A stretch of 64,000 nucleotides of DNA. It comes from Euryarchaeota archaeon UBA462 (GTDB lineage Archaea; Thermoplasmatota; Poseidoniia; Poseidoniales; Thalassarchaeaceae). Below are positions 1 through 20,825 of the stretch, one piece after another (position 1 is the first letter of the stretch; every line of letters begins with the position of its first letter). Made by a program: the position numbers and the translations under genes. Location of the stretch: NCBI GenBank assembly GCA_002506755.1, contig DAYD01000008.1, forward strand, positions 2,151-66,150. Reading direction: 5' to 3'. The notes under the pieces are model-generated. The model did no database searches. It worked only from the letters and a program-made list of their open reading frames with translations, and was not told the DNA's origin.

Positions 1-3000
1 GACGAGTCCTGTGAATTCCCCGTATGTCCCTGTCGAGTTGTCGTACTGCTCGAATGTTATAGACGGGTTGGGGATATCAGCTAGCACCCATTCGGCGCCT
101 ATTGTGAAGTTTCCACCCTCAGTCAGATACGTCTGGACTCCGTATTCCCCAGGGGCTGTCTCCAGGTCAGCGTACGAGGTCCCATTTTCGTAAAGGAGGT
201 ATCCCGAGGTTAGAGTTAGGTCGTCATTACCTACGAATGTTATGAGCCATCCTAGATCGGCTTCATCTCGGAAAATCGGCAGTGTCATCTCGAGATCAAC
301 CCCGAAGACGTCGTGGAACTCGACTACCCAAACACCTGAGAAAGTCATTGGCAAGGAGGAGTCTCCCAACCAAGCCTCATCCAAGGTCGGATCACTGTAG
401 GACCATGCGCTCGGAGCGTCTCCATTCAACTGGAATGGTGGTGCTTCATCGGGACTGCCATCATATGCATCACCGTTGATCTCTGAGAACGCGTCTGCGG
501 CCTCGCTGGTGTTCAATACGCCGTCCATATTGCCCCACATGGCGTCCATCCAGAGCATGGCGTCACCGCCTATTCCCCATTCGAAGTGTGTGGTCAGCTG
601 GTAGTCTCCCTCGTCGATTAGCTCGAGGTCGAACTGTACCTCGAAAGAATCCGAGAAGTCATCCTCCAAAACTGTCTGGCAGGGTCCTTCCTCGTAGTAT
701 TCCCTCTGCACTAGCTCGAAGAGCGTTCCTTCGTGGTCGAAGGACAGGCTGGAGTAGAGTTCCATTCCACAGTACCAGTGAGGTATGGCCAGTATCAGGT
801 CGACAGTGGCGTTCTCGTCGGTAGCGTTCCAGGATACGGTCTGAGAGTCCAATTCATGGCCGTAAACGTAAGCGGAGTAGGACATGGAGTATGTCACGCC
901 CTCCTCAAGCATTGTTGCATTGAACCTCACATCGTAGACGCCTGCGTCACCTATCATGTGGTTCCACCCATCATCGTAGTCCACCCATGTGCCTCCATCG
1001 TCGATCTGGAGCTCGTACCATCCGCCTGGCATCTCCTCGCACGGCGGATAGAGGTTGAAGCCATATCCTCTGACGTTCAGCCAGCCATCAGACGTGTTCA
1101 CCCTAAGGTTCGCGTTGACGTGTAGGTAGCAGTCGAAGTCCGTTACCGTGACTTCCCATGGTATCACCATGTCATCGTCCTGGCTGGATTGAGTCCATGT
1201 GAACGTGTCAGAGATCTGGTTGCTCCAGTCGTGGTCAATCACGTAGTACCATGAAAGCTCGAATTCGTGCTCCTCGGGAGTCTCTTCCTCGCCTTCCCAT
1301 GTATCATATCCAACGACCCACAGTAGATCGGTCGTTCCCCCGTCTATATCGTTGTACGACACGTAGTCTCCGTCTTCGTCTGTCACGTCCATCCAAACTT
1401 CGTAACACTCGTCATAGTTGGAGAAGTGGAAGTTCCTGCTGAAGATGTGGTTATTGTTGCCGTCGGTAGTGTTGTAGATCACAGCATAGGAGTTGGTGTG
1501 GCAATCCCATTGAGTGACATTGAACGAGAAGTCCACGTGCTCTGTCCCATTGAACGTGAAGTCGTAGTAGTACCAACCATAGAACCCTGAGGTCATCGAT
1601 GTGTAATACTCCAAGGTGTAGTTGCTTCCCACATCCAAGTGGTCCAAGACAAAGGTCATGTTGTTCTCTCCTACCTGCACGCCGTTGTCGCCGTATTCGT
1701 CGTAGGAATCGATATCCAAAGGCAAGTTGCACGGGCCGTCTATGTATCTAGTTCTGCTATACATCTCCGACCACTGGCCATCGGTAAGGTTGATTACCCG
1801 AGCGTAGAAATACGCTTGGCAGTCGAAAGAGTCCATCGTCATGTTGAATTCTATGCCGTCTGGTATGTCATCGGTCGTGTTCACTGTAAGCTCATCGTAG
1901 AACCACCCGTACCATCCTTGACTGTCGTCATAGTACCACTCCAGCCTGTACTCGGTGCCGTTGTCCATATGCCCGAAGTCGAAGAAGAGGTTGTTCACTC
2001 CCTCCTCAAGGGAGAAGCCGGGATCCAGCGCATCGACCGTCAGGTTCCCGTCGTCATCAGCGGCGAACAGGTTGAACGGTGGGTAGCATGGCTCCTCTGG
2101 GTGGAAGCTGAAGCTCGCCACCTGCTCGTAGTTGTTCGTGTAGTCAGACATCGGACGAAGGTAAGCGTACCAGTAGACGTTGCACTCGTACATGTCTATG
2201 GTGATGTCGAAGTCGAAGGACTCAACCCCAGTCGAGTCGGCCGTGAAGTACTCGTAAGTGTAATCGCAGCAGTAGTTACCGCTGAGGTACCAGTAGAACT
2301 CGTACTCGTAGCCCTCGAGGAGTCCAGTGAGGTTCCAGCTCATGTTCGTTGTACCTGGCATGAGGTCGTAGCCGTATCCGTAGTCGTACGTCGACCAGCT
2401 GCCGTCTTGGTCCTCGATGTCCACGGCGATCGTGCCCGCATCCTCTATGCAGTCCGTTTCAGGGTAGAGATAGGTGTAGTCATAGTAGTGCCATCCAGAG
2501 AAGTCGCTCTCCTGGCGCATGTAGCTGTAGAAGTTCGGGTTGCACTCGAACTCGCTCAGCATCACCGAGAATTCTATCGGTCCATCGTCGGCACTGACCC
2601 AGCCGCTCCACCAATGGCCTGGTCCGCTGGAGCTGAAGTAGTACGATGTATCACCCATCCAGCTGATATCGTAGTACATGTTGATCTCGCCCGCGGGTAG
2701 TAAGGTGTCATCGTCGACAATCACCCAATTACCGTCTATCTCTGCGTACAGAGGCGTTGAGAGCCTCGCGTCACCATCAGTCCCATCGCACGGCCCTTCC
2801 ATGTCATACAGATACGAATTGTTTAGTTCCGTGTTGGACCATGTGCTGGTCTTCACATACAGTTTCGCGTATACATCGACATCGCAGACGAATCCTGGAA
2901 CATCAAAGGTGAAGTCGAAGTCGTGTGAAGTGAAGTTGTCCACTATCACCATGTGGCTCTCGAAGAAGTTCAGGTACCCATCGTACCTAACCTCGATTTC

Positions 3001-6000
3001 AGCCGCGTATGGGAAGCCGTCCTGAAGGTTGTCTGCAGAAATCGTCAGGGTGTTCTCGCCCGCGGTGAACTGGGAGTCCTCGTCCAGCTCACTGCCGGTG
3101 GCGTCCGTGACCGAGAAGTCGGGATAGTCGGAGCTGTCGTAGCTGAGGCTCTCGCACGGCCCATCAATGTAGAAGCCCTCCGAGCCGAGGTACCAGCTGT
3201 TGTAGTTGCTATCCGGATACCTGAAGTCGTAGAGGGTCATGTCCCAACTGAAGTACATCGAACACGCCCAAGGCGCGATCGGGATTGAGAACTCCATGAG
3301 GTTGCCGTCATAGGTGAAGTAGTGGTACTCGGACTGGCTTGGGAATCCAGTGCTGCTATAGTACATGTACATCCTGTAGGTAGCACCCACGCTGAGGTTC
3401 TCGAAGGTGACCTGCACGGCGGTCTCGCCCGCTGGCAGGTCGTCAGGATCCTCCACCCATGTCCCATTAACGTCGAACTCGAAGTTCGCGTAGTGGTCGT
3501 CAGGGTACACCCATTCGTTGCAGCTTGGGTACCAGTAGAAACTCTCATCTTTCATGTTCATCCAGTTAGTGGAGTCGCTGTCATCTGTGTCGACGAACAG
3601 CCTGTACCTCACCTCTAAGTTACAAGTAGTCGAGTTGTCTATCGAGAAATCCCATGATATGGAGTGGTCGTCGCTGGTTGCAACCCATGTCTGATGCTCG
3701 TAGAGCACGTAGTCGTTGTTCAGCCTGACGTACCAGTCGAGGGTGTAGTGTCCGCCGACCGTCAGGTCCTCGAGCTCCCATGACATGTCGTTGGTGCCGT
3801 TGTTGAGGTTGGACCAGTCTTCCCAGACCTCGCCAATGCCATCCATGTTGAGAGAGACGTTGCCGGGGTTCTGGCAGTCGGTCTCGAAGTTGTTGTACCT
3901 GCTGATCATGTGGTATCCGCTGCCCCTGAAGGAGTCATACCTCAGGTAGACGTATATCTCGACCAGGCAATCCCACTGGGTTACTGGTACGTCGAAGTAA
4001 AATACGCTCTGGTCTGTGGTTACTTCTACGCTGTTGAAGTACTCGTTATCAGAGCTCGTGTGCCATCTGTACTCTAAGGTGTACTCGGTGTCCGAACCTG
4101 CTAGGTTGCTTACGTCAATCGCGAAGGGGATAGTCTGGTTCCCTCCGACATTGTCCCACTCTGAGACCTCGGTGTAGTTGCCGTCACCGTCCGAATCGAC
4201 GAGGATCGCCCATGGGTACAGCGACTGGTAGTTGTCGCAGCTTGGGTAGAAGTATCGGGTGTGGCTGCTGATTTGGTCCCAGTAGTTGCTCGACTCGTCT
4301 ACGAGGTAGAAAATCCTCGACTCTAGCCTCAGATCGCAGACCTCTGGCTCGACTTCAACGGAGAAGTCTACCGTGATGTTTCCACTGTCGGAGAAAGTCG
4401 TGTAATCGTACGTTTGCATGTCCCCGTTCTTGTAGACCGCCCACTCGAATGCGTAGTCATATCCCTCCGGGAGGTCGTATATCTCCCATGAGAGGTTGTG
4501 AGTGCCTTCGTCGATCTGATAGGAGTCGACGTAGTTTCCGCTCTCGTCTTCCATATCGATCCACACGTTGGCACAGTCTGGTGCGTTGAAGTGCCAGCTG
4601 TCGCTTGGGCCAGCGGAGCTTCCGTTGCCATCGTAGTACAGGTAGGCGTATGCATAGGCATAGCAGTCGAAGATACCGAGATGCAAATTCCAGTTGACGT
4701 CGTTGGAGCCGTTGTAAGTGAAGTACTCGGAGTACCAACCGTTCCAGGAGGAGTCGTTGCTGTAGTACCACTGTAAGTAGTAGTCAACCCCATCCTCTAG
4801 GTAATCGAATGCCCATGTCATTTCGTTGTCACCCAAAGATAGGTCCATCGAGTCCATATCCTCGGTGTCTGTACCATTGACCAGGAGGGATACTGGCTTC
4901 ATGCACGGGCCATCTAGGTAGATTGATCGGTCAAACATATTGCTGCGCTGCCCGTCTGACAGATTGTAGACCCTGACTTGCAGGTAGGCATCGCAGTCGA
5001 AGGAGTCCATCGTCATGTTGAAGTGAATCCCATCCGGAACGTCATCAGACAAGTCGACGTCAACTATCAAGTCGTAGTACCATCCGTTGCCACCATCGCT
5101 ATCCGAGAAGTAGTAGTCCACCTCGTACTGTGTGCCGTTGTCCATGTTTCCGAAGTCCATGAACAGATGGTTATCGCCTGGCAATAGCGCGAAGCCCGAT
5201 TCAAGGGCATTCACCGTCAAATTGCCTTCGTCATCCGTCGTCACGAGGTCGAACGGTGGGTTGCAAGGCTCCTGAGGGTGGAAGCTGAATGACTCGGTAT
5301 TGTGGTAGGATCCCGAGTACTCGGACATCGGCCTGAGATATGCGTACCAGTAGATGTTGCACTCGTACCTGTCGATTGTGATTTCGAAGTCGAAGGACCC
5401 AACCCCAGTCGAGTCGGCCGTGAAGTACTCGTAAGTGTAATCGCAGCAGTAGTTACCGCTGAGGTACCAGTAGAACTCGTACTCGTAGCCCTCGAGGAGT
5501 CCAGTGAGGTTCCAGCTCATGTTCGTTGTACCTGGATTCAGATAGTAGTCATAGCCTTCCCCATTTTCGTAGGAGCTCCAGTTACCCTCGTCGTCTTGGA
5601 TGTCCAGTGTTATGTCACCACCGTCAAGACAGTCGGTTTCTGGGTGGATGTAGTTGGACCCAGTGCTGTGGGAGCCAGTCCAGTCGCTGCCAGCCCTGAA
5701 CTCTATCCTGCTGTAGATATACAGGTCGCACTGGAACTCGCTGACTGTCCAGGTCCACTCGAATGGGTGGTCGTTGCCATCCACCATGCCGCTCCAGTGA
5801 GAATGGCCGCCCTGGTAGAAGTAGACCTCCTCCTCGGTGTCGAGGGAGCTTAGGTCCCAGTACATTTCTGTCTGCCCTGGAGGAATCACGGTATCGTCGT
5901 CAACTAGTACCCATGTCCCGTTGATCAGCGCATATAGCGGGATGCGGAGCTGAGCGTCTCCCCAACTGCCGGAGCCGTCACAGGGGCCATCTGCATTCTG

Positions 6001-9000
6001 GATGTCTTCATAGTACAGCTGGGTGTTGCCGCTCGAGGTCCTTACGTACAGGTACGCCCTCACGTCGACCTCGCAGACGAACCCTGGTACGTCGAACTCG
6101 ACTGTCAGAGCCTCGCCGACGGTGCTGTTTCCGAACCAAGCGGTCTGGTCGAAGATGTTCAAGTATCCGTTGAAGTAAACCCTCGCCTCCATGTAGTATG
6201 GGAAGTCGCTTTGCAGGTTTTCTGCGGACAGATGCAAAGTGTTGTTGGTCTCTGAGAATTCGTAGTCGGTGCTTATCTCGCTGCCTGAGCCGTCTGTGAC
6301 GTTGAAGTAGGGCGAGTCTGAGCTGTCATAGCTCATTGTCAGACAAGGTCCGTCAAGCGATCCACTGTCCGAGCCCATCCACCAGCTGTTGTAGCCGGTA
6401 CTGGATGAGGTACCATACCTGAAGTCGTACACCTGAATGTACCAGTTGTACGATATCGAGCATGCCCAGGGAGCTATCGGCATATCGATGTCCATGGGCT
6501 CACCATCGTAGGTGAAGTAGATGTGTTCCGAATTGCTATTGAACCCGGTTCCGGAGTAGGAGAAGTACAACATGTAGTTAGCCCCCTCGCTCATGTTCTC
6601 GAACCTTAGCTGCACAACATCGAATCCATATGGCATGGTATCGGGGTCTTCCACCCATGTACCGTTGACGTCGAACTCAATGCTCACGTAGTGGTCATCT
6701 GGGTAGACATACTGATCGCAGCTGAAGGACTCGTAGTAGTTGCCATTGTCCATCTCGGCCCAGTAGCCAGAGCCTGTAATGTCGACGAATGTCCGGTAGT
6801 ATACCCTCACGTTGCAAGTTGTCGAGGTGTCTACATCCAGTTCCCAGTCGAACAGGGCGCTTGAGTTGACGCCTGTGTTCCAAGTCTCACTTACGTAGCT
6901 CACGTAGTCGTTATTGTACTGGACCCTCCATTCGAACGTGTAGGTGGTATTGGCCACTAGGTCCGTCAGGTTCCATGACATGGCGTTTGATCCGTTCTCC
7001 AGTCCCATGTCGTAGCCGACATCCTCGGAGTCAATCTCTAGCTCCACGTCTCCGGTGTTGACGCATGGCGAGTCGGTGTATTCCGTCCCTGACTTGATGT
7101 AGGTCATATCACCATCCAGGAGGTACATGCCCACGTACAGGTAGGCCTCTACTTGGCAGACCCACTCGTCGACAGTCATCTCCACCTCCACGTAGTCTTC
7201 CCTGTCCGCTGGGTAGAACTGGCCCCAGTTCCAGCTCTCCTGGTCGAAGTTGGTGCGTATGTGACCCCAACTGTTGTACTCCCTGTCTTGATCCAATCCA
7301 GATAGGTCTATCCTGAAGGTGTGGTCGCCGTTCTCGATGAGGTCCGAGGTGGCCCAAGAGTCATCGGAAGTGTCCTCGGTATCGTTGTCATCCAGAACAA
7401 GGAGGGGGAACTGGTTGAAGTCCGCCTCATAGTTGCAATTGGGATTGAGGTAGTCCGAGCCGGAGTGGACCTCGATATGGGTTCCCTCGTCAGTCAGAAC
7501 GTAGAGGTAGTATCGTAGCCTGATCTGACATGTTATCTCCTCCTCCACGTCGAGGGTGAATTCGTGGGTATGCTCAGAAGAGGTCGAGTTGAACTCGAAG
7601 GAGTGGTGACTGGTGTAGTCATCGTTCCTGAAGACCAGCCACTCGAATTGGTAGGTCTGGTTCTCCACCAGGCTATGCATGCGCCACCTCATCTCGTTAG
7701 ATCCGTTGTCCACGTTCGAATTGGAGTATGAATCGGTCCATCCGTAGGATCTGTTCACCTGCGATACTGCACGGCCCCCGTCGACACAATCATCGGGGTG
7801 GAAGTAGCTGCTCCAGCTTTGTATCTGGCTGCCTCCTGCAGAGTCGTTGTAAACGTAGACCCTGACGTAAATCTCGCAGTCCCATATAGTGGCGTTTAGG
7901 TGCCAGTCGATGTGGGAACCGTCATGCGTAAAGTCATGGTCGAAATGCACGTTGCCTTGGGTGGAGGGTGCCCTCCAGTAGTAGTTCACCCTGTAGTCGC
8001 TACCAACTTCTAGGTTGTCGAGGTTCCACCTCATCTCGTTCGTTCCTGCCGAGAATAGCTCAGAGCCTGCTGAGACGTAGGTCCCATCTGCCTCTGGGTC
8101 TATCTCAAGGACAGCGGGAAGGACGCATGGCCCATCCAAATCGATTCTGTAGGTGCCTCCTACCCGATCACTATTGCCGTTGGAGATTTCGTACACTCGC
8201 ACATCGACGTAGATTTCGCAGTCTTCGTCATCGAGAGTCATGTTCCAATAGTATCCTTCGATGGTCTCGTTGACAGTGAATTGGTTGTCGTAGTACCATC
8301 CGTGTCCTCCCGATTTATCGCCATGCCAGTAGTAGTCGACCTCGTAGTCGCCGTGTCCGATGCTTGACAGGTCGAACATCATCTGGACGGTCCCCTCGGG
8401 AAGGGTGGATGTGGTCGAGTCAGCCCATCCGGTCGAAGAGGTTCCGTCCTCGAATAACAGGTCGTAAGGTGGGATGCAAGGCTCGTCTGCGTAGAAGTAG
8501 ACTGTTTCTAGATTCCTCATACTGCCATCGTTCCAGATGCTTAGAGTACCATAGCCCCAGACGTCGCACGAGCTCTCCTCTACGTCCAAGTCGAAGTGCC
8601 AAGAGTGGGTGTCCGAGGTAGCGTACCATGTGTCGCCCGCGTTGCTGTAGACGTATTCATTGTCTACATATGCGTAGAAGTATATCGAGTACCTCTCCCC
8701 GATGTTCAGGTCCGTCATGTTCCAGTAGAGGTCGGTGCTTCCAGCTGGGATATCCCATCCGTTGTTGTTTAGCTCGAGCTCTTCCTCCCAACCATCTGCC
8801 AGCATCGCGGACACCGAAAGGTCCCCGGCAGGATCGCAGTCAGAGTTCTGAAAGTATCTGGTTGGCATGGACGCATAGGTATTCCAATTGCCGCTCAGAG
8901 ATATGTAATCGATGTGGGAGTAGGCTTGCGAGGTGCAGCTCCAATCGTTGACGGTATAGTTGAGGTAGATGTCTTCGCCTTCGTATCCGTCGTAGTTTGA

Positions 9001-12000
9001 ATAGCTCGGGTTCGAGGGGTTTCCGACGTTGAAGTAGGTACTGTAGCTCTCACTGTTGCTCCCCTCGCCTTGGACGTAAGTACTGATGTAGTAGGTCATG
9101 TTGTCCGTCAGGCTGAGCGAGCCTATGTTGAACCTGAGTTGGTTGACTCCGGACTCCAAGAGCTCAGGGTCATCCTCCCAGGTACCGTCGGAGCCCAACT
9201 TGGAAAATGTGATCTGCGAGCCCTCGTAATCGCAATTCGTCGAGCTTCCTGAGTATCCGAAGTGCTCGGAGAGAGTACCGGACCGGAACCATCCGTTGTA
9301 GTCCTTAACGTACATCTCGGAGTAAAGGTAGAGATCGCAGGCGTCCTCGTCTATGTTGACTGTCCATTCGCCGCTTACGTCTGTTGTGTCGCCGAAGAAG
9401 TTCTCGCTCCTGATTTCCTGGATTTTCCCGTTATATCTCAGATGCATCGTAATGAAGTGTTCGTACCCATTCAGAGACTCCTCGACGCCCCATCTGAATG
9501 TGTTGTCTCCCTCTTGCAGTTCTGCTACCTCATCGAGGTCATCGAGTGACCCGTCCGTGTCTACGATCGACAAGGAGAACTCTGGAGCTGTTTCGTCCGT
9601 GAGGTCTACTGCGTCATTGCAAGGACCGTCGATCACGGGATCGCCGTTTTCGTGGTCCATCCGGTATTGGTTCCCTGTGTGTGTTCGGAAGTACAGGTCG
9701 TACTCGAAGTCAATGTGACAGGACCAATCTGCAATGGGTAGCTCCCACATGACGTTGAAGTCCCCTGTGCCATCGTAGTAGGAGTAAAGGTTTGAGCTGT
9801 TTAGGTAGGCTTCGATATTAGTATTCAGCTTTAGGTTCTGTCCTTCGTTTGTTCCACTGACCTCCCACTTCATCTGGTGGATGCCCACGGACAGGTTTGT
9901 CGTTTCGTTGACCTCTACCCAGTTGTTGCTTTGGTCGAGGTGCCACAGGCTGACTGGGTTGTATGGAACCACTTCGGTACCGTCGCAGACTGGATCGAGG
10001 TCGAAACCGTGGCTGGATACCGATGTCCACTTATCGTCATTCGCATCATCCTCGTCCCACCACTCCTGCGTTTCATCGAAATCGGCATATAGATAGGCAT
10101 TAACATCCACGTCACACCACTCCCCTGGAGTTTCGAGGGTCCAATTCAGGTGTGTGTAGTTCGATGTCGCAGTGAATACCGTTTTGTTGTAATAGTCACC
10201 GTAGAGCGAATCCTCTCCATCGGCTGTATAAGAGCTCGACCGGTCAGTGAACCACTCGAATACGTAATCCTCGCCGACCTCGAGGTTGGAGAGATTCCAG
10301 ATCAAGTCGTTTGAGCCGTTGTTGGTCGATGAGCCGGTGTAGGTCATGTTATGGAGGTGAAGATTGACATCTCCCCAGTCCTCGCAATCGGTCGAGAAAG
10401 ACTCGGACCAGTAGTCTAAGTGTTTCGATCCGCCGTCAGGGAGCTCGAGGTATAGGTAGGCGTAAACGTTGGGGTGACAATCGGTGACATGAACCGAAGC
10501 ATTCCAGTAGATTGGCTGACCGTCGTAAACGAAGTGGTCATCCATAACCTGATCTCCCTCGAAGTACCAGTAGAGCCTCACGCCTGTCCCATTGGCCGAT
10601 TGGTCAATGTCCCAGTAGAAGTTCTGGAGCCTGGAGTTTGAGGTGTTCAATTCATCGTTTTCGTCGTTTACCTCGATCCAGCTCTGTCCACCATTTGCAT
10701 CATCCATTATGGCGTAGAGGCTCAGTACCGAGGTGTCTTCCGTAGTGGAGCCATCGCAGGGCCCGTCGAAGTCCTTCTGATCGAATCCGACCTCCATCCA
10801 CTTGTGCGGGGTCAAAACGTATGCATAAACCGCGAATTCAACGTCACAGACGTAACCGGGTACGACTATGTTGTAGTTTGCCCAGCACTCATCGTCTCCC
10901 GCGGGGCACTCAAGATCTGTGAATGCGACATATTCCCCATCAAATTCGATGGTGTAAACGGTTCTGTATGTGCGAAGGTCCTTCCCCCCCTGGAATCCAG
11001 CAGTGCCCGCGAAGGACCCTGCGCTGAGATCGTGCCCATCTGAAAGGGGGTATGGAGAGTTGACCCTAAGATCTGTGATCTCCTCACCGCAATTGACGTT
11101 GATTGTCTCATCGTAGTACTCGATGTTGACACCCGAGGTGGAGTTTTGGATGTAGGCATCAACCCTTACATCGCAGGTCCAATCAGGATCCGAATTGAGG
11201 TCGAACTCCAAGTATGAGCCGTCTGCGGTGAATGTGAAGCTTTCTCCGCGCGACCTGAATTCGGTATACCATGAAAAGGAGATGTAGTAGGACTGGCCGT
11301 CATCTAGGTTGCTAGTGTCCCATGCTAGGGTGGAATCCCCGCTGGATATGGTGTCAGGATCCTGTGTCCATGACCCGTCTGACTCCAGAACGTAGAGCAT
11401 GAATGGCTCTCCTGCGCACAGATTAGTGGCGTTCGGTGTCATCTCGTCTGGCTCGTTGTAGTCCCAAACCCCATTACAAAGCTCCCATGAGCCATCCCTG
11501 CTGGTCGAGTAACCCTCGTTGTCCCTCCCGTAGTAGTCCAGAGTTGTCACGACTGCGGCATTCGAGGTCGATACGTTCCTAGTTGAGATTAGCAGGGAGT
11601 CCGAGTAGCTGATGTCGAAGGAGAAGTCGCCATTTCCTCTTTCGAAAAGCATGAACCCTCCTGATGTGATGTTTGTCCCATTGCTAAGGACCATTCCGGA
11701 GCTGGTGTCATCGTCCCGTATGTGCCATCCCCCTAGATCGCACTCAGCGCTTCCGGAGTTGTGGATCTCGATCCAATCACTAGAAGAGTCGTGGTAAACT
11801 TCAGTGACATTGACGTCCGTTAGCGAGCAATCTGGCAATGGTGTGGTGCCAGAAGTGCTACGAATTGAATTTTCAAGCTCTTCCGGAGCTAAATCCTTCT
11901 CCAGTAGTCCAGTTTGTAGTGTAAGTGCTGGTGTTGCTACCATTAGAAGAATCATAAAGATAGCATTGTTTTTCGTTCGGTTCCCGTATACGGCAGGCTG

Positions 12001-12003
12001 CAT
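1..12003 (-). CDS. Giant secreted/cell-surface protein with its C-terminus beyond the left window edge (>=4001 codons): N-terminal signal/anchor, LTD-like domain, ~30 tandem ~119-aa two-cysteine modules
   Basis: It is absent from the supplied ORF track because no stop codon lies inside the window. The ATG is at 12003-12001, with an in-frame stop just upstream at 12025-12027. I hand-translated the reverse-strand frame with codons on 3k+1..3k+3 over 1-3660, 8640-9000 and 10800-12003, plus spot checks (e.g. 6961-7020), and found no stop. None of the listed minus-strand ORFs in 1-12003 is in this frame, which could not happen if the frame contained stops. N-terminus: MQPAVYGNRTKNNAIFMILLMVATPALTLQTG. 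Confidence 0.9.
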   Translation of the reverse strand, partial: MQPAVYGNRTKNNAIFMILLMVATPALTLQTGLLEKDLAPEELENSIRSTSGTTPLPDCSLTDVNVTEVYHDSSSDWIEIHNSGSAECDLGGWHIRDDDTSSGMVLSNGTNITSGGFMLFERGNGDFSFDISYSDSLLISTRNVSTSNAAVVTTLDYYGRDNEGYSTSRDGSWELCNGVWDYNEPDEMTPNATNLCAGEPFMLYVLESDGSWTQDPDTISSGDSTLAWDTSNLDDGQSYYISFSWYTEFRSRGESFTFTADGSYLEFDLNSDPDWTCDVRVDAYIQNSTSGVNIEYYDETINVNCGEEITDLRVNSPYPLSDGHDLSAGSFAGTAGFQGGKDLRTYRTVYTIEFDGEYVAFTDLECPAGDDECWANYNIVVPGYVCDVEFAVYAYVLTPHKWMEVGFDQKDFDGPCDGSTTEDTSVLSLYAIMDDANGGQSWIEVNDENDELNTSNSRLQNFYWDIDQSANGTGVRLYWYFEGDQVMDDHFVYDGQPIYWNASVHVTDCHPNVYAYLYLELPDGGSKHLDYWSESFSTDCEDWGDVNLHLHNMTYTGSSTNNGSNDLIWNLSNLEVGEDYVFEWFTDRSSSYTADGEDSLYGDYYNKTVFTATSNYTHLNWTLETPGEWCDVDVNAYLYADFDETQEWWDEDDANDDKWTSVSSHGFDLDPVCDGTEVVPYNPVSLWHLDQSNNWVEVNETTNLSVGIHQMKWEVSGTNEGQNLKLNTNIEAYLNSSNLYSYYDGTGDFNVMWELPIADWSCHIDFEYDLYFRTHTGNQYRMDHENGDPVIDGPCNDAVDLTDETAPEFSLSIVDTDGSLDDLDEVAELQEGDNTFRWGVEESLNGYEHFITMHLRYNGKIQEIRSENFFGDTTDVSGEWTVNIDEDACDLYLYSEMYVKDYNGWFRSGTLSEHFGYSGSSTNCDYEGSQITFSKLGSDGTWEDDPELLESGVNQLRFNIGSLSLTDNMTYYISTYVQGEGSNSESYSTYFNVGNPSNPSYSNYDGYEGEDIYLNYTVNDWSCTSQAYSHIDYISLSGNWNTYASMPTRYFQNSDCDPAGDLSVSAMLADGWEEELELNNNGWDIPAGSTDLYWNMTDLNIGERYSIYFYAYVDNEYVYSNAGDTWYATSDTHSWHFDLDVEESSCDVWGYGTLSIWNDGSMRNLETVYFYADEPCIPPYDLLFEDGTSSTGWADSTTSTLPEGTVQMMFDLSSIGHGDYEVDYYWHGDKSGGHGWYYDNQFTVNETIEGYYWNMTLDDEDCEIYVDVRVYEISNGNSDRVGGTYRIDLDGPCVLPAVLEIDPEADGTYVSAGSELFSAGTNEMRWNLDNLEVGSDYRVNYYWRAPSTQGNVHFDHDFTHDGSHIDWHLNATIWDCEIYVRVYVYNDSAGGSQIQSWSSYFHPDDCVDGGRAVSQVNRSYGWTDSYSNSNVDNGSNEMRWRMHSLVENQTYQFEWLVFRNDDYTSHHSFEFNSTSSEHTHEFTLDVEEEITCQIRLRYYLYVLTDEGTHIEVHSGSDYLNPNCNYEADFNQFPLLVLDDNDTEDTSDDSWATSDLIENGDHTFRIDLSGLDQDREYNSWGHIRTNFDQESWNWGQFYPADREDYVEVEMTVDEWVCQVEAYLYVGMYLLDGDMTYIKSGTEYTDSPCVNTGDVELEIDSEDVGYDMGLENGSNAMSWNLTDLVANTTYTFEWRVQYNNDYVSYVSETWNTGVNSSALFDWELDVDTSTTCNVRVYYRTFVDITGSGYWAEMDNGNYYESFSCDQYVYPDDHYVSIEFDVNGTWVEDPDTMPYGFDVVQLRFENMSEGANYMLYFSYSGTGFNSNSEHIYFTYDGEPMDIDMPIAPWACSISYNWYIQVYDFRYGTSSSTGYNSWWMGSDSGSLDGPCLTMSYDSSDSPYFNVTDGSGSEISTDYEFSETNNTLHLSAENLQSDFPYYMEARVYFNGYLNIFDQTAWFGNSTVGEALTVEFDVPGFVCEVDVRAYLYVRTSSGNTQLYYEDIQNADGPCDGSGSWGDAQLRIPLYALINGTWVLVDDDTVIPPGQTEMYWDLSSLDTEEEVYFYQGGHSHWSGMVDGNDHPFEWTWTVSEFQCDLYIYSRIEFRAGSDWTGSHSTGSNYIHPETDCLDGGDITLDIQDDEGNWSSYENGEGYDYYLNPGTTNMSWNLTGLLEGYEYEFYWYLSGNYCCDYTYEYFTADSTGVGSFDFEITIDRYECNIYWYAYLRPMSEYSGSYHNTESFSFHPQEPCNPPFDLVTTDDEGNLTVNALESGFALLPGDNHLFMDFGNMDNGTQYEVDYYFSDSDGGNGWYYDLIVDVDLSDDVPDGIHFNMTMDSFDCDAYLQVRVYNLSDGQRSNMFDRSIYLDGPCMKPVSLLVNGTDTEDMDSMDLSLGDNEMTWAFDYLEDGVDYYLQWYYSNDSSWNGWYSEYFTYNGSNDVNWNLHLGIFDCYAYAYAYLYYDGNGSSAGPSDSWHFNAPDCANVWIDMEDESGNYVDSYQIDEGTHNLSWEIYDLPEGYDYAFEWAVYKNGDMQTYDYTTFSDSGNITVDFSVEVEPEVCDLRLESRIFYLVDESSNYWDQISSHTRYFYPSCDNYQSLYPWAILVDSDGDGNYTEVSEWDNVGGNQTIPFAIDVSNLAGSDTEYTLEYRWHTSSDNEYFNSVEVTTDQSVFYFDVPVTQWDCLVEIYVYLRYDSFRGSGYHMISRYNNFETDCQNPGNVSLNMDGIGEVWEDWSNLNNGTNDMSWELEDLTVGGHYTLDWYVRLNNDYVLYEHQTWVATSDDHSISWDFSIDNSTTCNLEVRYRLFVDTDDSDSTNWMNMKDESFYWYPSCNEWVYPDDHYANFEFDVNGTWVEDPDDLPAGETAVQVTFENLSVGATYRMYMYYSSTGFPSQSEYHYFTYDGNLMEFSIPIAPWACSMYFSWDMTLYDFRYPDSNYNSWYLGSEGFYIDGPCESLSYDSSDYPDFSVTDATGSELDEDSQFTAGENTLTISADNLQDGFPYAAEIEVRYDGYLNFFESHMVIVDNFTSHDFDFTFDVPGFVCDVDVYAKLYVKTSTWSNTELNNSYLYDMEGPCDGTDGDARLSTPLYAEIDGNWVIVDDDTLLPAGEINMYYDISWMGDTSYYFSSSGPGHWWSGWVSADDGPIEFSVMLSEFECNPNFYSYMRQESDFSGWHYYDYTYLYPETDCIEDAGTIAVDIEDQDGSWSTYDYGYGYDLMPGTTNMSWNLTGLLEGYEYEFYWYLSGNYCCDYTYEYFTADSTGVESFDFDITIDMYECNVYWYAYLRPMSDYTNNYEQVASFSFHPEEPCYPPFNLFAADDDGNLTVDALDPGFSLEEGVNNLFFDFGHMDNGTEYRLEWYYDDSQGWYGWFYDELTVNTTDDIPDGIEFNMTMDSFDCQAYFYARVINLTDGQWSEMYSRTRYIDGPCNLPLDIDSYDEYGDNGVQVGENNMTFVLDHLDVGSNYTLEYYTSMTSGFYGWYYYDFTFNGTEHVDFSFNVTQWDCHTNSYAVIYNTTDGNNNHIFSRNFHFSNYDECYEVWMDVTDEDGDYVSYNDIDGGTTDLLWVVGYDTWEGEEETPEEHEFELSWYYVIDHDWSNQISDTFTWTQSSQDDDMVIPWEVTVTDFDCYLHVNANLRVNTSDGWLNVRGYGFNLYPPCEEMPGGWYELQIDDGGTWVDYDDGWNHMIGDAGVYDVRFNATMLEEGVTYSMSYSAYVYGHELDSQTVSWNATDENATVDLILAIPHWYCGMELYSSLSFDHEGTLFELVQREYYEEGPCQTVLEDDFSDSFEVQFDLELIDEGDYQLTTHFEWGIGGDAMLWMDAMWGNMDGVLNTSEAADAFSEINGDAYDGSPDEAPPFQLNGDAPSAWSYSDPTLDEAWLGDSSLPMTFSGVWVVEFHDVFGVDLEMTLPIFRDEADLGWLITFVGNDDLTLTSGYLLYENGTSYADLETAPGEYGVQTYLTEGGNFTIGAEWVLADIPNPSITFEQYDNSTGTYGEFTGLV
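2224..2358 (-). repeat. Copy 1 of a 135-bp perfectly duplicated segment (intragenic)
   Basis: Base-for-base identical to 5401-5535 (aaccccagtcgagtcggccgtgaagtactcgtaag...gttcgttgtacctgg). The offset is 3177 bp, which is 1059 codons. Confidence 0.95.
5401..5535 (-). repeat. Copy 2 of the 135-bp perfectly duplicated segment
   Basis: Identical to 2224-2358. Extended to 5378 vs 2201, I see only 2 mismatches in 158 bp. Confidence 0.95.
11550..11830 (-). other. Lamin-tail-domain (LTD)-like domain of the giant protein (approximate bounds)
   Basis: The translated segment LTDVNVTEVYHDSSSDWIEIHNSGSAECDLGGWHIRDDDTSSGMVLSNGTNITSGGFMLFERG fits the LTD pattern as I recall it (acidic-x-[FW]-[IV]-E-[IL]-x-N, then [LV]-x-G-W-x-[IL]-x-D). 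Confidence 0.6.
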
Positions 12004-12154
12004 TGACCCATTGCGGAATCGGACTCAGTTATGATATGATTCTCTATAGTTTGAGATTGAACCTAGTGCTAATTTCTCACTGAATCTTTTAGTGGAAGCA
12101 TAGGTCCCGGTACCTCATTTCCAGTGTATTTGAAGATTGAAATCCTTACTCGAT

Positions 12155-12922
12155 TTAGTAGATCATCGGAACGTCATCGTCATCGTCTGATTCCGGAGGT
12201 GGGAGAGCGGCTGCCTGGGCCCTTTCGAACGCTTCCCTGACTTTCTCTTCGATATTTTTGGCATCCTCGAGTAGACCGCCTATTGGGACGTCGATTCCCG
12301 ATAGCTCGCTGAGTCCCTCGACGGCAATTAGTGCCGCCCTAGCATCCGGGTACATCGGGTTGCACTCGGCTAGAAGTGCAGTGACGTCAAGCCCCCTCCT
12401 CTCACCCTCTGCTATCAGGTATCCTGCTATTCCCGTGACTATTCCCTGTTGGATTCTTTGTATGCTGGAGCTATCGAGCTGTTCTCGGCCTAATGGAGTC
12501 GAAGACACCCCCCATAACTCACTCTCCTCCTTGATTCCTAGGTCGTTGCTTACCACTCCATCTATTACGACGAGCCTTTCGAAGCCTCCTTTCGTGAACC
12601 ATTCAAGCACTGTGTTTGCGAAGTAGACGTCATGCTCACTTGGAAATTGTATTTCCGAGGTGAATACACCTATTGCCTCTCCTTGGTAAACACGAACTGG
12701 GTGTTTGGGCACTGAGTCGTGTATTAAGGCAATTGCAGGGAATTGGGGATGCAATACAGTCCCCATCGGATTCATCTCAAGCGAGCTGATGAGATGCGAG
12801 GTAGCGATGACCCCAACTGAGCCTACTGTCGAGAAGCCACATACTGCTGTCCCCCCCAAGGCGGAAGGGTCGGCCTCGGAATGTAGGACTAGCGGATAGC
12901 CGCCTTGGGTCTCTTCGCTCAT
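12155..12922 (-). CDS. PAC2-family protein (archaeal proteasome-assembly-chaperone homologue, PbaA/PbaB-like)
   Basis: 255-aa ORF. The N-terminal region GGTAVCGFSTVGSVGVIATSHLISSL...PAIALIHDSVPKHPVRVYQGE is typical of PAC2/COG1938 as I recall it. It is a paralogue of the ORF at 20007-20825. The C-terminus is acidic: ESDDDDDVPMIY. Confidence 0.7.
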   Translation of the reverse strand: MSEETQGGYPLVLHSEADPSALGGTAVCGFSTVGSVGVIATSHLISSLEMNPMGTVLHPQFPAIALIHDSVPKHPVRVYQGEAIGVFTSEIQFPSEHDVYFANTVLEWFTKGGFERLVVIDGVVSNDLGIKEESELWGVSSTPLGREQLDSSSIQRIQQGIVTGIAGYLIAEGERRGLDVTALLAECNPMYPDARAALIAVEGLSELSGIDVPIGGLLEDAKNIEEKVREAFERAQAAALPPPESDDDDDVPMIY

Positions 12923-16962: not shown

Positions 16963-18147
16963 TCAGACACTAACCTCACTTACTCTGAGGATCAGTACGA
17001 GGAAGTTGGCTTCCAATGTCCAATCGTTCCCTTGGTCTGGGTCCACACCGTCTATTGGAGTATCTGGGTCGCACTCCAGCGCTGTGATTTCAAAGGTCCA
17101 TGTTCCTTGTCCAAACCTCCCATCAGGATCGCTCAAGAGATTCTCAATAACGGCTTCTTTAGAGTCTGAATATATCGTGTACCCTGACTCTGGTAGGGGG
17201 TTCATTTCATTTCTCTCAATTGTAGCTGATGAGTTCTCTGTGAAGTTATCTTGGTTGGTGATTACGCTGTATGACCATCCAGATGAGGGCAGATCAACCT
17301 CAAGAGTAAAGTTATCTTCGGGCCATGTAATTGGAAGTATGTCTCGAGATAGAGACAATGTTGCTCTAAACTCTATCAATCTCGCTCCATCACCAGGTTG
17401 GAACTGTATTTCATGGGATGCACCCTGATCGAGGTAACCTGACCAGTCATAGTCCAGATAAGCCTCTTCCCAGACAACTCTGAATGAGCGGGAGATGACT
17501 CTAAGTGTCCAAGAGGTTGTGTTTGATGCACCGGTATCATCAGTCACGGTCACGGTACCGGTCACGTTTCGTGCCTCAGTCGCGGTTAGCTTCGTGATTA
17601 ACCCGATAGCGTCCGCGTCGTTTAGGGGATCGCTATCACCATCGGAGTCCGTGTTTGCATCGTAATCCCAAGTGACCTGTATCCCGCCTCCTTCCGGGTC
17701 GAAGGATTCGCTGGCATCAAGTCTTGCCTCTTGTCCGGTCTTTACGAAATCAGGTAAATTTAGTATAATCTCCGGAAGAGCATTCACGAAGATGCTGATG
17801 CTTGCAGTGTCTGAGGTGCCTTCGTCGTTGAATACCTCTACAGTGACCTCAAAGGTTCCCGAGTCTTCGAATATGTGACTAATTACTCCCTGTTTGGTTG
17901 TTTTTATTTTTCCATCTCCAAAGTTCCATTTGAACTCATCTATGATTGTGGGGTCCGGACTAGTTGATGCCCGTGCATCAAAATTAACCGACTCCCCTGC
18001 ATTCACAGTAGTTTGATCCGAAGTGAGGTTAGCATTTGGACTACCAGGACCTATTCCTCCGCAGCCCGAGAGTGAACTTGACAGTATCAATAGTGAAATG
18101 AGTATACTTGTGGTAGTGGCGCTAGACTGCATACTTCTAGCAGCCAT
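16963..18147 (-). CDS. PKD-domain surface lipoprotein
   Basis: The start is moved to MAARSMQSSATTTSILISLLILSSSLSGCGG (signal plus lipobox). The track ORF (to 18297) would overlap the divergent exonuclease gene. PKD signature: FDARASTSPDPTIIDEFKWNFGDGKIKTTKQGVISHIFEDSGTFEVTVEVFNDEGTSD. Confidence 0.8.
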   Translation of the reverse strand: MAARSMQSSATTTSILISLLILSSSLSGCGGIGPGSPNANLTSDQTTVNAGESVNFDARASTSPDPTIIDEFKWNFGDGKIKTTKQGVISHIFEDSGTFEVTVEVFNDEGTSDTASISIFVNALPEIILNLPDFVKTGQEARLDASESFDPEGGGIQVTWDYDANTDSDGDSDPLNDADAIGLITKLTATEARNVTGTVTVTDDTGASNTTSWTLRVISRSFRVVWEEAYLDYDWSGYLDQGASHEIQFQPGDGARLIEFRATLSLSRDILPITWPEDNFTLEVDLPSSGWSYSVITNQDNFTENSSATIERNEMNPLPESGYTIYSDSKEAVIENLLSDPDGRFGQGTWTFEITALECDPDTPIDGVDPDQGNDWTLEANFLVLILRVSEVSV

Positions 18148-18205
18148 ACGTCCCTCATAGGAGTGTTGGGTCTTTCTAGGGTTGGGGTGCCAATTGCGAT
18201 AGTTC

Positions 18206-18811
18206 ATGGACGGTCCCGATAGGAGCACATACGTGGCTTCTAGAATGCTTGAGGGATTCAGAGTGTTGGGTCTCGACCTAGAGACTACAGGATTCAACCC
18301 AAGATTTGACAGGATCGTTCAATACGCATTAGTGGGGAGTGATGCTGACGGAACTCATCTGAGTCTTCAGTCCCTAGTTAATCCTGGAGTTGGTATACCC
18401 GCGGAGTCTACCCGTGTTCATGGGATTTCCAGTAGCGATGTTGCAGGCGAATCGGATTTTGGCGATCATATCAATAGCTTCAGAGAAATGGCCGATGGAG
18501 CTATTATCGTCGGTCATAATGTGATTGCCTTCGATTGGAGATTCATCGAGGTTGAGTGCGCGAGGTTTGGGGTAGAGCCTCCCGCCCCATATGCTATCAT
18601 TGACACACTTACATTGGCTAGGAAATTCAATTTGACTCGCCCCCACAAACTAGGTTCATTATGCAAAAGGTACGGAATCAGACTGGAAAGATCGCACAGT
18701 GCTGATGCGGATGCCGGGGCAAGTCTGCTTCTTCTCTGGAGGATCATGGCTACTAATCCCGAAATGTTTCAAAGCAGCCTTGATGATTTTCTCCAATCAA
18801 TAGATCAGTGA
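18206..18811 (+). CDS. DEDDh 3'-5' exonuclease (DnaQ/epsilon-like, RNase T superfamily)
   Basis: Exo I: LGLDLETTG. Exo II: GHNVIAFDWRF. Exo III: HSADADA. The start may instead be the internal Met of MLEGFRVLGLD. Confidence 0.8.
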   Translation: MDGPDRSTYVASRMLEGFRVLGLDLETTGFNPRFDRIVQYALVGSDADGTHLSLQSLVNPGVGIPAESTRVHGISSSDVAGESDFGDHINSFREMADGAIIVGHNVIAFDWRFIEVECARFGVEPPAPYAIIDTLTLARKFNLTRPHKLGSLCKRYGIRLERSHSADADAGASLLLLWRIMATNPEMFQSSLDDFLQSIDQ

Positions 18812-20006: not shown

Positions 20007-20825
20007 GTGGATACTAGCACTATGGCGGAGGGGCCTACGATTGACATTGGAGCTGAGGTCAACTCCTCAGGAGCGCTTTTGGTAAGCTGCTTTCCCTCTG
20101 TGGGATTCGTAAGTAGCATTGTTGCACATTTCCTAGTTGAAAGGCTAGAGTTGGAGCTTGTGGGGGGGGTCCGTCATCCGAATCTACCCCCCGTATGCCT
20201 AGTTCAGGACGGAAAACCTCTGCCTCCAGTTAGGTTCTATGCAGGTGAGCCAATATGCAACATGGACAGGTGCGACAAGGTTGTGCTTATCGCTTCTGAG
20301 ATCCAAGTTCCTTCAGAATTGAGCTTGCCTCTTTCTTCTAGCCTTATCGATTGGATTGTAAGGTCTGGAGTAAGTTCGACAATTATGATCGATTCATTTG
20401 CCCACGGAATTGACAGCAGTCACAGTATTTTCGACGATGATGAGGGAATGGATTCCATGTTGGGAATTGGGTCAACAGACTCGAGCCATGATCTAATCAA
20501 GAGCATCGGAGTGCCTCTTCTGAAACATGGAGTGGTCGGGGGCATGACAGGGGTCATGATGGGAGAATGTAGGAGAAGAGAGATTGATGCCTTAGCGATT
20601 CTGGCAGAATCGGATGGAGAGATCGGCCAAGGAGTGATTCCCGATGCTAGGGCCGCTGCAAGGATAATTGGATGTATGGATGGGCTGCTTCCCGCGGTAA
20701 ATCTGGATCCGGAACCTCTTCTAAAGGAAGCTCAGAGGATTGAGGGTCAGATCAGGGATATGATGTCCTTGCACCTTAATCCACCACAGGAGAGTGCGAG
20801 CACAAATACTGGGATGTACGGTTAA
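20007..20825 (+). CDS. PAC2-family protein (PbaA/PbaB-like) ending in an HbYX motif
   Basis: 272 aa (GTG at 20007; ATG at 20022). GALLVSCFPSVGFVSSIVAHFLVERL...PPVCLVQDGKPLPPVRFYAGE parallels the ORF at 12155-12922. The C-terminus ...NTGMYG is hydrophobic-Tyr-X. Confidence 0.7.
   Translation: MDTSTMAEGPTIDIGAEVNSSGALLVSCFPSVGFVSSIVAHFLVERLELELVGGVRHPNLPPVCLVQDGKPLPPVRFYAGEPICNMDRCDKVVLIASEIQVPSELSLPLSSSLIDWIVRSGVSSTIMIDSFAHGIDSSHSIFDDDEGMDSMLGIGSTDSSHDLIKSIGVPLLKHGVVGGMTGVMMGECRRREIDALAILAESDGEIGQGVIPDARAAARIIGCMDGLLPAVNLDPEPLLKEAQRIEGQIRDMMSLHLNPPQESASTNTGMYG

Follow-up and report, generated by a model that had tools for sequence, protein, structure and literature searches.

What occupies the first 12 kb of an archaeal contig on which a mechanical list of open reading frames (ORFs) shows only short, overlapping ORFs on both strands? 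The question is raised by a 64,000-nucleotide (nt) stretch of contig DAYD01000008.1 (positions 2,151 to 66,150 of the forward strand; assembly GCA_002506755.1, Euryarchaeota archaeon UBA462), referred to here as the window. The original prediction, made from the letters and the ORF list alone, placed a single giant gene on the reverse strand of this region, coding for a repetitive surface protein and running off the window's left edge. Follow-up analysis showed that the giant gene is real and under purifying selection, and its product is very probably a genuine exported surface protein. The label 'surface protein' draws on features of the predicted chain together with the C-terminal sorting signal of an orthologue, and is to be read in that light throughout.

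The open frame and its coding evidence

Reverse complementation of window positions 1 to 12003 yields 4001 residues with zero stops from the ATG at 12003, just as had been predicted, while the nearest in-frame stop 5' of this ATG lies 7 codons upstream. The window therefore holds the first 4001 codons of the giant gene (1..12003, minus strand), out of a full length that we infer to be ~4705 codons. Calculated from the base composition of the region, the log10 chance of a frame staying open for so long is -76.6. The G+C content at codon positions 1, 2 and 3 of this frame is 0.49, 0.39 and 0.71, respectively. In comparisons with four near-identical contigs, third codon positions accounted for 37/54, 32/46, 18/24 and 41/58 of the substitutions, and synonymous codon changes outnumbered non-synonymous ones (e.g., 32 vs 19). 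Codon-position G+C and the third-position bias both favour the reverse frame, and the plus-strand ORFs are therefore its shadows, as first suggested. The frame is indeed missing from the ORF list, because it runs off the window edge; callers that require an in-window stop skip the dominant gene and give shadow ORFs in its place. Between the ATG and the next gene upstream, which encodes a PAC2-family protein, the sequence reads as an intergenic stretch (12004..12154, minus strand), the presumed promoter site.

Assembly support and strain variation

An exact look-up of the neighbouring PAC2 protein placed the locus on at least 22 contigs from several projects. Six independent short-read contigs align with the window along 10-16 kb at 98.3-100% identity, none with more than one gap: L002 and L006 show 100% identity over 14.3 kb and 10.2 kb, respectively, the values for L001, L004 and L005 are 99.5-99.65%, and L003 stands lowest at 98.3%. 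Long-read evidence comes from a pilon-polished contig (L013, 55.6 kb), which follows the giant gene colinearly over 10,460 nt and, beyond the window's left edge, runs colinear with the orthologue L008 and on into the downstream genes. Relative to the giant gene it carries 61 indels, which fit sequencing error and which are the cause of its fragmented gene calls. The gene is complete in none of the short-read contigs examined. L001, L002 and L004 break off within the thrombospondin repeats, with 4655 or 4619 aa called for the gene, and L005 and L006 end at window positions 5433 and 5506, at a duplication of nine modules.

Contig breaks in the thrombospondin repeats or at the 9-module duplication, together with the fragmented gene calls on the long-read contig, are what might be expected were the frame an artefact, whether a chimera, a pseudogene in decay or a repeat collapsed during assembly. 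This reading fares badly against the near-identity of the six independent contigs and the colinearity of the long-read contig, and the third-position substitution bias and excess of synonymous changes are at odds with it as well. Modules that are ~22% identical to one another leave nothing to collapse; at the DNA level they have diverged beyond detection as tandem repeats, with the exception of the one 9-module duplication. In addition, complete or near-complete orthologues (3383 aa and at least 4387 aa) share the architecture. An artefact is accordingly so improbable that we consider it effectively excluded. The idea of a hypervariable island was likewise rejected: measured against near-identical strains, the gene diverges by 0.37-0.55%, a level close to the 0.32-0.47% of the flanking sequence.

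An array of two-cysteine modules

Most of the visible product consists of 30 tandem modules of ~105-135 aa each (aa 200-3775; 679..11406, minus strand), delimited by an alignment (A1) and a local hidden Markov model (HMM), and predicted by AlphaFold2 to be beta-sandwiches. The original prediction had put their number at about 30, their length at ~119 aa and their cysteines at two apiece, which agrees closely with the 30 modules found and their mean period of 119.7 aa. Mean column identity in the alignment is 22%, and the only invariant residues are two cysteines, C83 and C115, ~30 residues apart; one glycine is near-invariant. A recurrent motif, N-[ML]-[ST]-W-[NE]-L, had also been proposed: its strict form occurs only twice, while a looser version does recur, ~10 times. 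The local HMM, built from modules 2-30, finds 30 domains, including module 1, which lay outside the training set (independent E-value 6.6e-16).

Module 13 was modelled by AlphaFold2 with 29 modules as the alignment, giving a seven-strand beta-sandwich with a predicted local distance difference test (pLDDT) score of 91.3 and a predicted template modelling score of 0.82. In this model, C83 begins strand 6 and C115 sits just after strand 7, strands 6 and 7 forming one hairpin, so that a C83-C115 disulfide stapling the open end of the last hairpin is plausible. The conserved aromatics occupy alternate positions along the strands, which gives them the appearance of core residues.

The modules could not be assigned to a named family, as had been anticipated from the sequence. 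Searches of Pfam and NCBIfam returned no family for them, and the whole visible protein matches only the Lamin Tail Domain (LTD) described below. When 29 modules were scanned singly at E <= 1, no family was matched by more than one module, and this holds for the catalogued Ig-like repeat families (Big_1, PKD, CARDB, FN3, cadherin, DUF11 and others). The module profile retrieved nothing below E = 0.07 among PDB sequences. A Foldseek search of the module model against the PDB and viral structures, the check that had been proposed, gave only generic immunoglobulin (Ig)-like folds with query-normalised template modelling (TM) scores of at most 0.6, including ester-bond adhesin repeats, RhoGDI, the Wzt carbohydrate-binding domain (TM 0.59) and Ig-like domains of GH2. 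A word-index search with the module profile gave short fragments or near-identical pieces only, and is thus little guide to distribution. Among 1.84 billion cluster representatives searched exhaustively with the profile, 280 proteins reached E <= 0.001 and 81 of them E <= 1e-10, and the family appears to be rare. The local module HMM found no two-cysteine module in the other large ORFs of the window. We therefore put forward the two-cysteine beta-sandwich repeat as a candidate new family, absent from Pfam.

Evolution of the array

Comparison with the distant orthologue P0022 showed that modules 1-18 pair one-to-one with modules 1-18 of that protein, mostly at 43-64% identity; module 2 is the exception, its best match being a short 36-aa alignment to module p15. 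Modules 28-30 pair with P0022 modules 19-21. The intervening modules 19-27 (1729..4902, minus strand) have no separate counterparts in P0022 and, by direct repeats and module comparison, are a 9-module segmental duplicate of modules 10-18 (4903..8124, minus strand). The direct repeats are spaced 3177 nt apart with 70-91% identity locally, and modules 22-27 are 39-77% identical to modules 13-18. Outside the duplication, similarity to other modules of the same protein is 24-41%, mostly below that to the P0022 orthologue. Since the modules are mostly closer to their orthologues than to their siblings, the array is old and unhomogenised, with each position separately maintained. It offers a clean case of low identity between neighbouring domains in a very long protein.

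The N-terminal head

The chain opens with a signal-peptide-like or signal-anchor segment (aa 1-34; 11902..12003, minus strand), in which a basic n-region is followed by the hydrophobic stretch AIFMILLMVATPALTL. Its hydropathy peak at aa 14-34 corresponds to the hydrophobic signal or anchor noted originally, and the segment is kept in the orthologues P0001, P0002, P0004, P0005 and P0007. The LTD-like domain that had been recognised by eye was recovered as a match to Pfam PF00932 at aa 62-151 (11551..11820, minus strand; E = 5.3e-10, 40.1 bits vs a cut-off of 34.3), and it is also present in the orthologue L012 (35.9 bits). Between the LTD and the first module lies a conserved cysteine-containing loop, DGSWELCNGVWDYNEPDEMTPNATNLCAG (aa 156-199; 11407..11538, minus strand), with many invariant columns, 2 Cys among them, across 7 orthologues.

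In the AlphaFold2 model of the head, the LTD has pLDDT values of 75-87 and the Cys loop falls below 40; a fold search with this model against the PDB gave generic Ig/FN3-like matches only (TM normalised to query <= 0.6). The LTD and Cys loop together are 45-69% identical across orthologues, with ~70 invariant columns. The analysis points to the conserved LTD head as the candidate binding part of the protein.

The C-terminal end and its probable sorting signal

The last ~230 visible residues had been described as cysteine-free and different in character, with further domains expected outside the window, and both statements hold. The last 226 residues contain no Cys. They comprise a Cys-free domain (aa 3776-3980; 64..678, minus strand), which forms the first part of a C-terminal cassette common to paralogues, and the start of a degenerate module 31, cut by the window edge after 21 residues (1..63, minus strand). 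The latter was recognised by an HMM match (independent E-value 0.043) spanning aa 3991-4063 of a composite of the window and L008, and its Cys pair follows in L008. The Cys-free domain had no match in Pfam or NCBIfam, and a word-index search of it returned near-identical sequences only. Its motif xDGxLNxSEA recurs in the paralogues P0025, P0026, P0031, P0034 and P0036; conserved and acidic, it may be a calcium-binding loop.

In L008, which is 96% identical, the frame runs 704 aa past the window edge to a stop, giving the giant protein an inferred full length of ~4705 aa. This tail contains, in order, the degenerate module, two LDLa-like motifs (VNDGxxDCxDGxDE), a second degenerate module, thrombospondin repeats and a signal-like end. 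Its ~390-residue repeat region holds 20 D-x-D-x-D-G loops of thrombospondin type 3, for which TSP_3 (PF02412) scores 23.6 bits (E = 4.2e-5) vs a cut-off of 25 in L008 and 31.5 bits in the orthologue P0030. LDLa (PF00057, cut-off 24.1) had no match in the L008 tail at E <= 0.01; it scores 20.7 bits in P0030 and passes in the paralogues P0025 (30.9) and P0031 (27.9).

L008 ends in GGILPGFSAVAGLASMLGAAVLIAGRRKD, which contains a tripartite signal, LPGF-SAVAGLASMLGAAVLIAG-RRKD, followed by the stop. PGF_CTERM (TIGR04126) is the best NCBIfam match of this end (E = 4.1e-4). Substrates of the archaeosortase ArtA are defined by a PGF motif, a hydrophobic domain and positive charges (PMC7157517), and the L008 ending has the PGF motif, hydrophobic helix and basic residues of that definition. 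The same ending occurs in L009, L010, L012 and eight further paralogues or orthologues. On its 287-kb contig, L012 provides a complete orthologue of 3383 aa, in the order LTD, modules, thrombospondin repeats, PGF-CTERM. The full architecture could in this way be reconstructed for what is probably the largest gene of the population, a gene truncated in the short-read contigs examined.

On this evidence, archaeosortase-type anchoring at the C-terminus is likely, and such anchoring is thereby suggested for the Poseidoniales lineage, for which the sorting signal that the protein appears to use is not documented in the literature searched. General Pfam scans showed no archaeosortase A among the window ORFs, and no ArtA-directed search was made. 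A different fate for the C-terminus would be cleavage of the signal without lipid attachment, or later release, yielding a shed or secreted matrix protein that aggregates cells. The PGF_CTERM score falls below the cut-off, thrombospondin repeats are found in matrix proteins, and aggregation has been speculated on in the literature (PMC8821943). Even so, the tripartite signal, down to its terminal RRKD, is strictly conserved among orthologues and paralogues alike and fits a processed membrane-anchoring signal of the ArtA type, and we consider a free matrix protein improbable.

Paralogues with a common base

The same profile search retrieved seven paralogues with different Cys-rich repeats (P0025, P0026, P0031, P0033, P0034, P0036 and P0043). 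All seven have the C-terminal cassette in common, namely the Cys-free domain with xDGxLNxSEA, LDLa, thrombospondin repeats and PGF-CTERM. In three of them (P0025, P0026 and P0043), a periplasmic solute-binding domain (Peripla_BP_6/ANF_receptor; 102 bits for Peripla_BP_6 in P0025) is embedded between the Cys-rich repeats. The shared cassette, combined with differing repeats and domains, suggests a modular design in which stalks and tips vary on one common base.

The solute-binding domains of P0025, P0026 and P0043, carried on the same base, invite a second interpretation of the giant protein as a tethered capture device, in which the fibre would hold out a ligand-binding tip far from the cell, serving not attachment but the catching of dissolved or colloidal substrates (polysaccharide, DNA or protein, for example) for this heterotroph. 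The aromatic-rich composition (Y 8.5%, W 3.7%) and the presence of carbohydrate-binding domains such as that of Wzt among the Foldseek matches would suit this role. However, the giant protein itself has no solute-binding domain, its conserved aromatics have the placing of core residues, and the fold matches are weak and generic, so that a capture function seems rather unlikely for this member of the family.

Composition of the giant protein

The product had been described as rich in aspartate, tyrosine and tryptophan, poor in lysine and dense in N-x-S/T sequons. All of this was confirmed: in the visible part, D makes up 11.2% and K 0.5% of the residues, beside the Y and W contents given above, and there are 83 sequons vs 43.6 +/- 6.1 in shuffled sequences. 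The full-length inferred product of ~4705 aa would have a mass of ~534 kDa and an isoelectric point of ~4.05. The giant protein counts 929 D+E vs 114 K+R. Strongly hydrophobic segments are confined to the two ends, bar one borderline module strand at aa 4049.

A lysine content of 0.5% could suggest a salt-in halophile (Haloquadratum or nanohaloarchaea). This possibility was rejected, as cytoplasmic proteins of the same window have a normal 4-8% Lys and the closest genomes are Poseidoniales. Since cytoplasmic Lys is ordinary, the low Lys content and isoelectric point belong to the giant protein and, to a lesser degree, to two other large acidic ORFs.

The extreme negative charge and enriched sequons would also be in character for an envelope coat or spacer, in which the giant protein and the paralogues with the same base form a dense acidic glycocalyx with no specific tip ligand. 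Such a glycocalyx would stand in for an S-layer or add to one, and would shield the cell from viruses, grazers or fouling. In its favour, there is a whole paralogue family with the same C-terminal cassette, no binding domain other than the LTD is recognisable, and the S-layer glycoprotein is among the haloarchaeal ArtA substrates (PMC7157517). Set against this are the conservation of the head (45-69% identity and ~70 invariant columns across orthologues), which suggests a specific tip function, the cost of 4705 aa for a bulk coat component, and the usually much shorter, lattice-forming nature of S-layer proteins. We regard a coat as unlikely, albeit the least unlikely of the alternatives to an anchored adhesive rod.

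Proposed mechanism and function

The explanation that best accounts for the whole is an exported, C-terminally lipid-anchored, calcium-stiffened and glycosylated rod with an adhesive tip; taken as a full chain of steps, it is somewhat favoured. The steps up to the presentation of the tip are inferred from sequence features, and the adhesion step is speculative. The N-terminal hydrophobic signal would route the chain through the Sec system. An archaeosortase would then cut the PGF-CTERM-like signal (LPGF, hydrophobic helix, RRKD) and the new C-terminus would be joined to a membrane lipid, making the C-terminus the cell-proximal end. Near the membrane, ~20 thrombospondin type 3 loops and two LDLa-like motifs may bind seawater calcium and stiffen the base. 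Beyond them, the 30 confident and two degenerate modules could form a rod of ~130-150 nm, assuming ~4 nm per module, with each module probably disulfide-stapled and the modules rich in N-glycosylation sequons. The rod would hold the conserved head (LTD and Cys loop) at its far tip, and the tip might attach to particles, phytoplankton surfaces or other cells.

Several points weigh against this explanation. Disulfide bonding, glycosylation and calcium binding are each predicted from the chain rather than observed. The C-terminus lies outside the window and is supplied by a 96%-identical orthologue and a colinear long-read contig, and its PGF_CTERM score of 19.9 bits is below the curated cut-off of 24.5; no link of PGF-CTERM to Marine Group II was found in the literature searched. 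At the other end, the head model is of moderate confidence overall (pLDDT 68), Pfam and NCBIfam revealed no known binding or catalytic domain at the tip, and the ligand of the LTD is undefined. Furthermore, an N-terminal anchor, if uncleaved, would tether both ends of the chain.

On the strength of the architecture and the ecological literature, adhesion is the most likely of the roles considered, but in itself it is put forward tentatively, with the chances slightly against it. Large thrombospondin-repeat genes of adhesion type have already been noted in Poseidoniales (PMC6461757), and the connection drawn in the literature between thrombospondin genes of the order and adhesion is wholly inferential (PMC6461757; PMC8821943). 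The uncultured archaea of Marine Group II rank with the most abundant ones in the surface ocean, and their contact with particles or phytoplankton has so far been inferred from archaella and generic 'thrombospondin' genes (PMC6461757, PMC8821943).

A bolder extension of the anchored rod, and one that we hold to be rather doubtful, is that the giant protein and its paralogues together make up the unseen cell envelope of Marine Group II. The cell would then be covered by a forest of lipid-anchored glycoprotein fibres, calcium-stiffened and 100-150 nm long, with differing tips (the LTD here, a solute-binding domain in P0025, P0026 and P0043). If true, this would amount to a modular extracellular capture and attachment system built on a rare repeat family.

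Source organism and neighbouring genes

The source organism is an uncultured Marine Group II (Poseidoniales) archaeon. The closest genome record is that of the Candidatus Poseidoniales single cell AG-422-I22, which matches the last 346 residues at 96% identity. With the N-terminal 900 aa of the giant protein as query, a homologue search returned among others a protein under the name 'Euryarchaeota archaeon TMED164'. Archaeal housekeeping genes of the window encode TFIIB, topoisomerase VI A and B, two PAC2 proteins, ribosomal proteins S9 and L13, RFC, an NAD-dependent ligase, aconitase, isocitrate dehydrogenase and a class II ribonucleotide reductase. No synteny was found between the upstream neighbours in the window and the distant loci. 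One of the orthologues, L009 (NZLD01000051.1; 60% identity, same PGF-CTERM end), is in a record labelled 'Micrococcales bacterium', and another, P0006, sits in a record labelled 'Acidiferrobacter sp.'. Both contigs are probably archaeal and wrongly binned into bacterial genomes.

Two of the neighbouring ORFs are themselves large and acidic. The first (24695-32617, minus strand; 2640 aa) has 13.9% D, 1.9% K and a hydrophobic N-terminal segment; it shows a weak Big_1 match only, and has neither a PGF-CTERM-like end nor two-Cys modules. The second (51165-56417, minus strand; 1750 aa) contains a CARDB domain and matches the NCBIfam 'choice-of-anchor T' model at 71.4 bits vs a cut-off of 70. It ends in a C-terminal transmembrane helix followed by an acidic tail, and is probably another surface protein with a different anchor. 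A 444-aa PKD-domain protein is encoded ~5 kb upstream of the giant gene (16963-18297, minus strand).

Less than 8 kb separates the two PAC2-family (proteasome assembly chaperone-like) paralogues (12155-12922, minus strand, and 20007-20825, plus strand), of which the first shares the giant gene's strand and is its immediate upstream neighbour. In the class II ribonucleotide reductase (39479-43132, plus strand; 1217 aa), which has a TSCPD domain, the barrel is matched in two stretches, and this split may reflect an insertion such as an intein. The aconitase-family protein (44210-46246, plus strand) has a permuted order, with Aconitase_C (aa 113-160) preceding the main Aconitase domain (aa 253-666).

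Comparison with known systems

The nearest parallels in anchoring are the haloarchaeal ArtA substrates, such as the S-layer glycoprotein, which likewise combine an N-terminal secretion signal, an acidic and sequon-rich chain and a C-terminal tripartite signal of PGF motif, hydrophobic stretch and basic residues. The giant protein is presumably about five times longer than the haloarchaeal S-layer glycoprotein. It also differs in being made of more than 30 tandem modules, in not being a lattice former, and in scoring below the cut-off of the PGF_CTERM HMM. Its lineage is another one as well (Thermoplasmatota/Poseidoniales), in which the use of ArtA is undocumented in the literature searched.

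In overall design, the protein resembles the giant repeat adhesins of bacteria, such as MpIBP of Marinomonas, SiiE of Salmonella and LapA of Pseudomonas. Those adhesins too are long rods of tandem Ig-like beta-sandwiches with calcium-binding elements, one anchored end and a distinct far tip. Adhesins of that type are exported by type 1 secretion with RTX signals and retained in the outer membrane by their N-terminus, and their repeats are often near-identical. By contrast, the giant protein has a Sec-type signal, a C-terminal PGF-CTERM and a Cys pair per repeat, and its repeats are ~22% identical, each with an orthologue in the distant relative P0022.

The base of the protein recalls thrombospondin/COMP and MtsC of Myxococcus, with D-x-D-x-D-G calcium loops placed just before a C-terminal sorting signal. 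The match to the MtsC model (NCBIfam NF047638) covers the thrombospondin repeats only (E = 4.5e-19, 68.6 bits vs a cut-off of 350), and unlike MtsC, the giant protein has PGF-CTERM instead of MYXO-CTERM and is unrelated in its remainder. The modules, for their part, are similar in size to the ester-bond adhesin repeats that were the best Foldseek matches (PDB 8f9l and 4ni6), which are also beta-sandwich repeats, located in long adhesin stalks and held by an internal covalent staple. The fold match stands at TM 0.47-0.50 with 8-11% identity, and there is no sequence homology between the two. The staple of the ester-bond repeats is a Thr-Gln ester, whereas the module, with only its pair of Cys invariant, would be closed by a Cys-Cys disulfide.

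Among archaeal giants, the 9159-aa halomucin of Haloquadratum walsbyi is comparable in that it too is very large, acidic and extracellular and is presumed to act at the cell surface. Halomucin is not in the match lists of the giant protein, and no sequence comparison with it was made; to our knowledge, it has neither the two-Cys module nor a PGF-CTERM-type anchor. Viewed beside all of these, the Marine Group II protein is best described as an adhesin-type surface protein of giant size, made up of tandem repeats that belong to an uncatalogued family.

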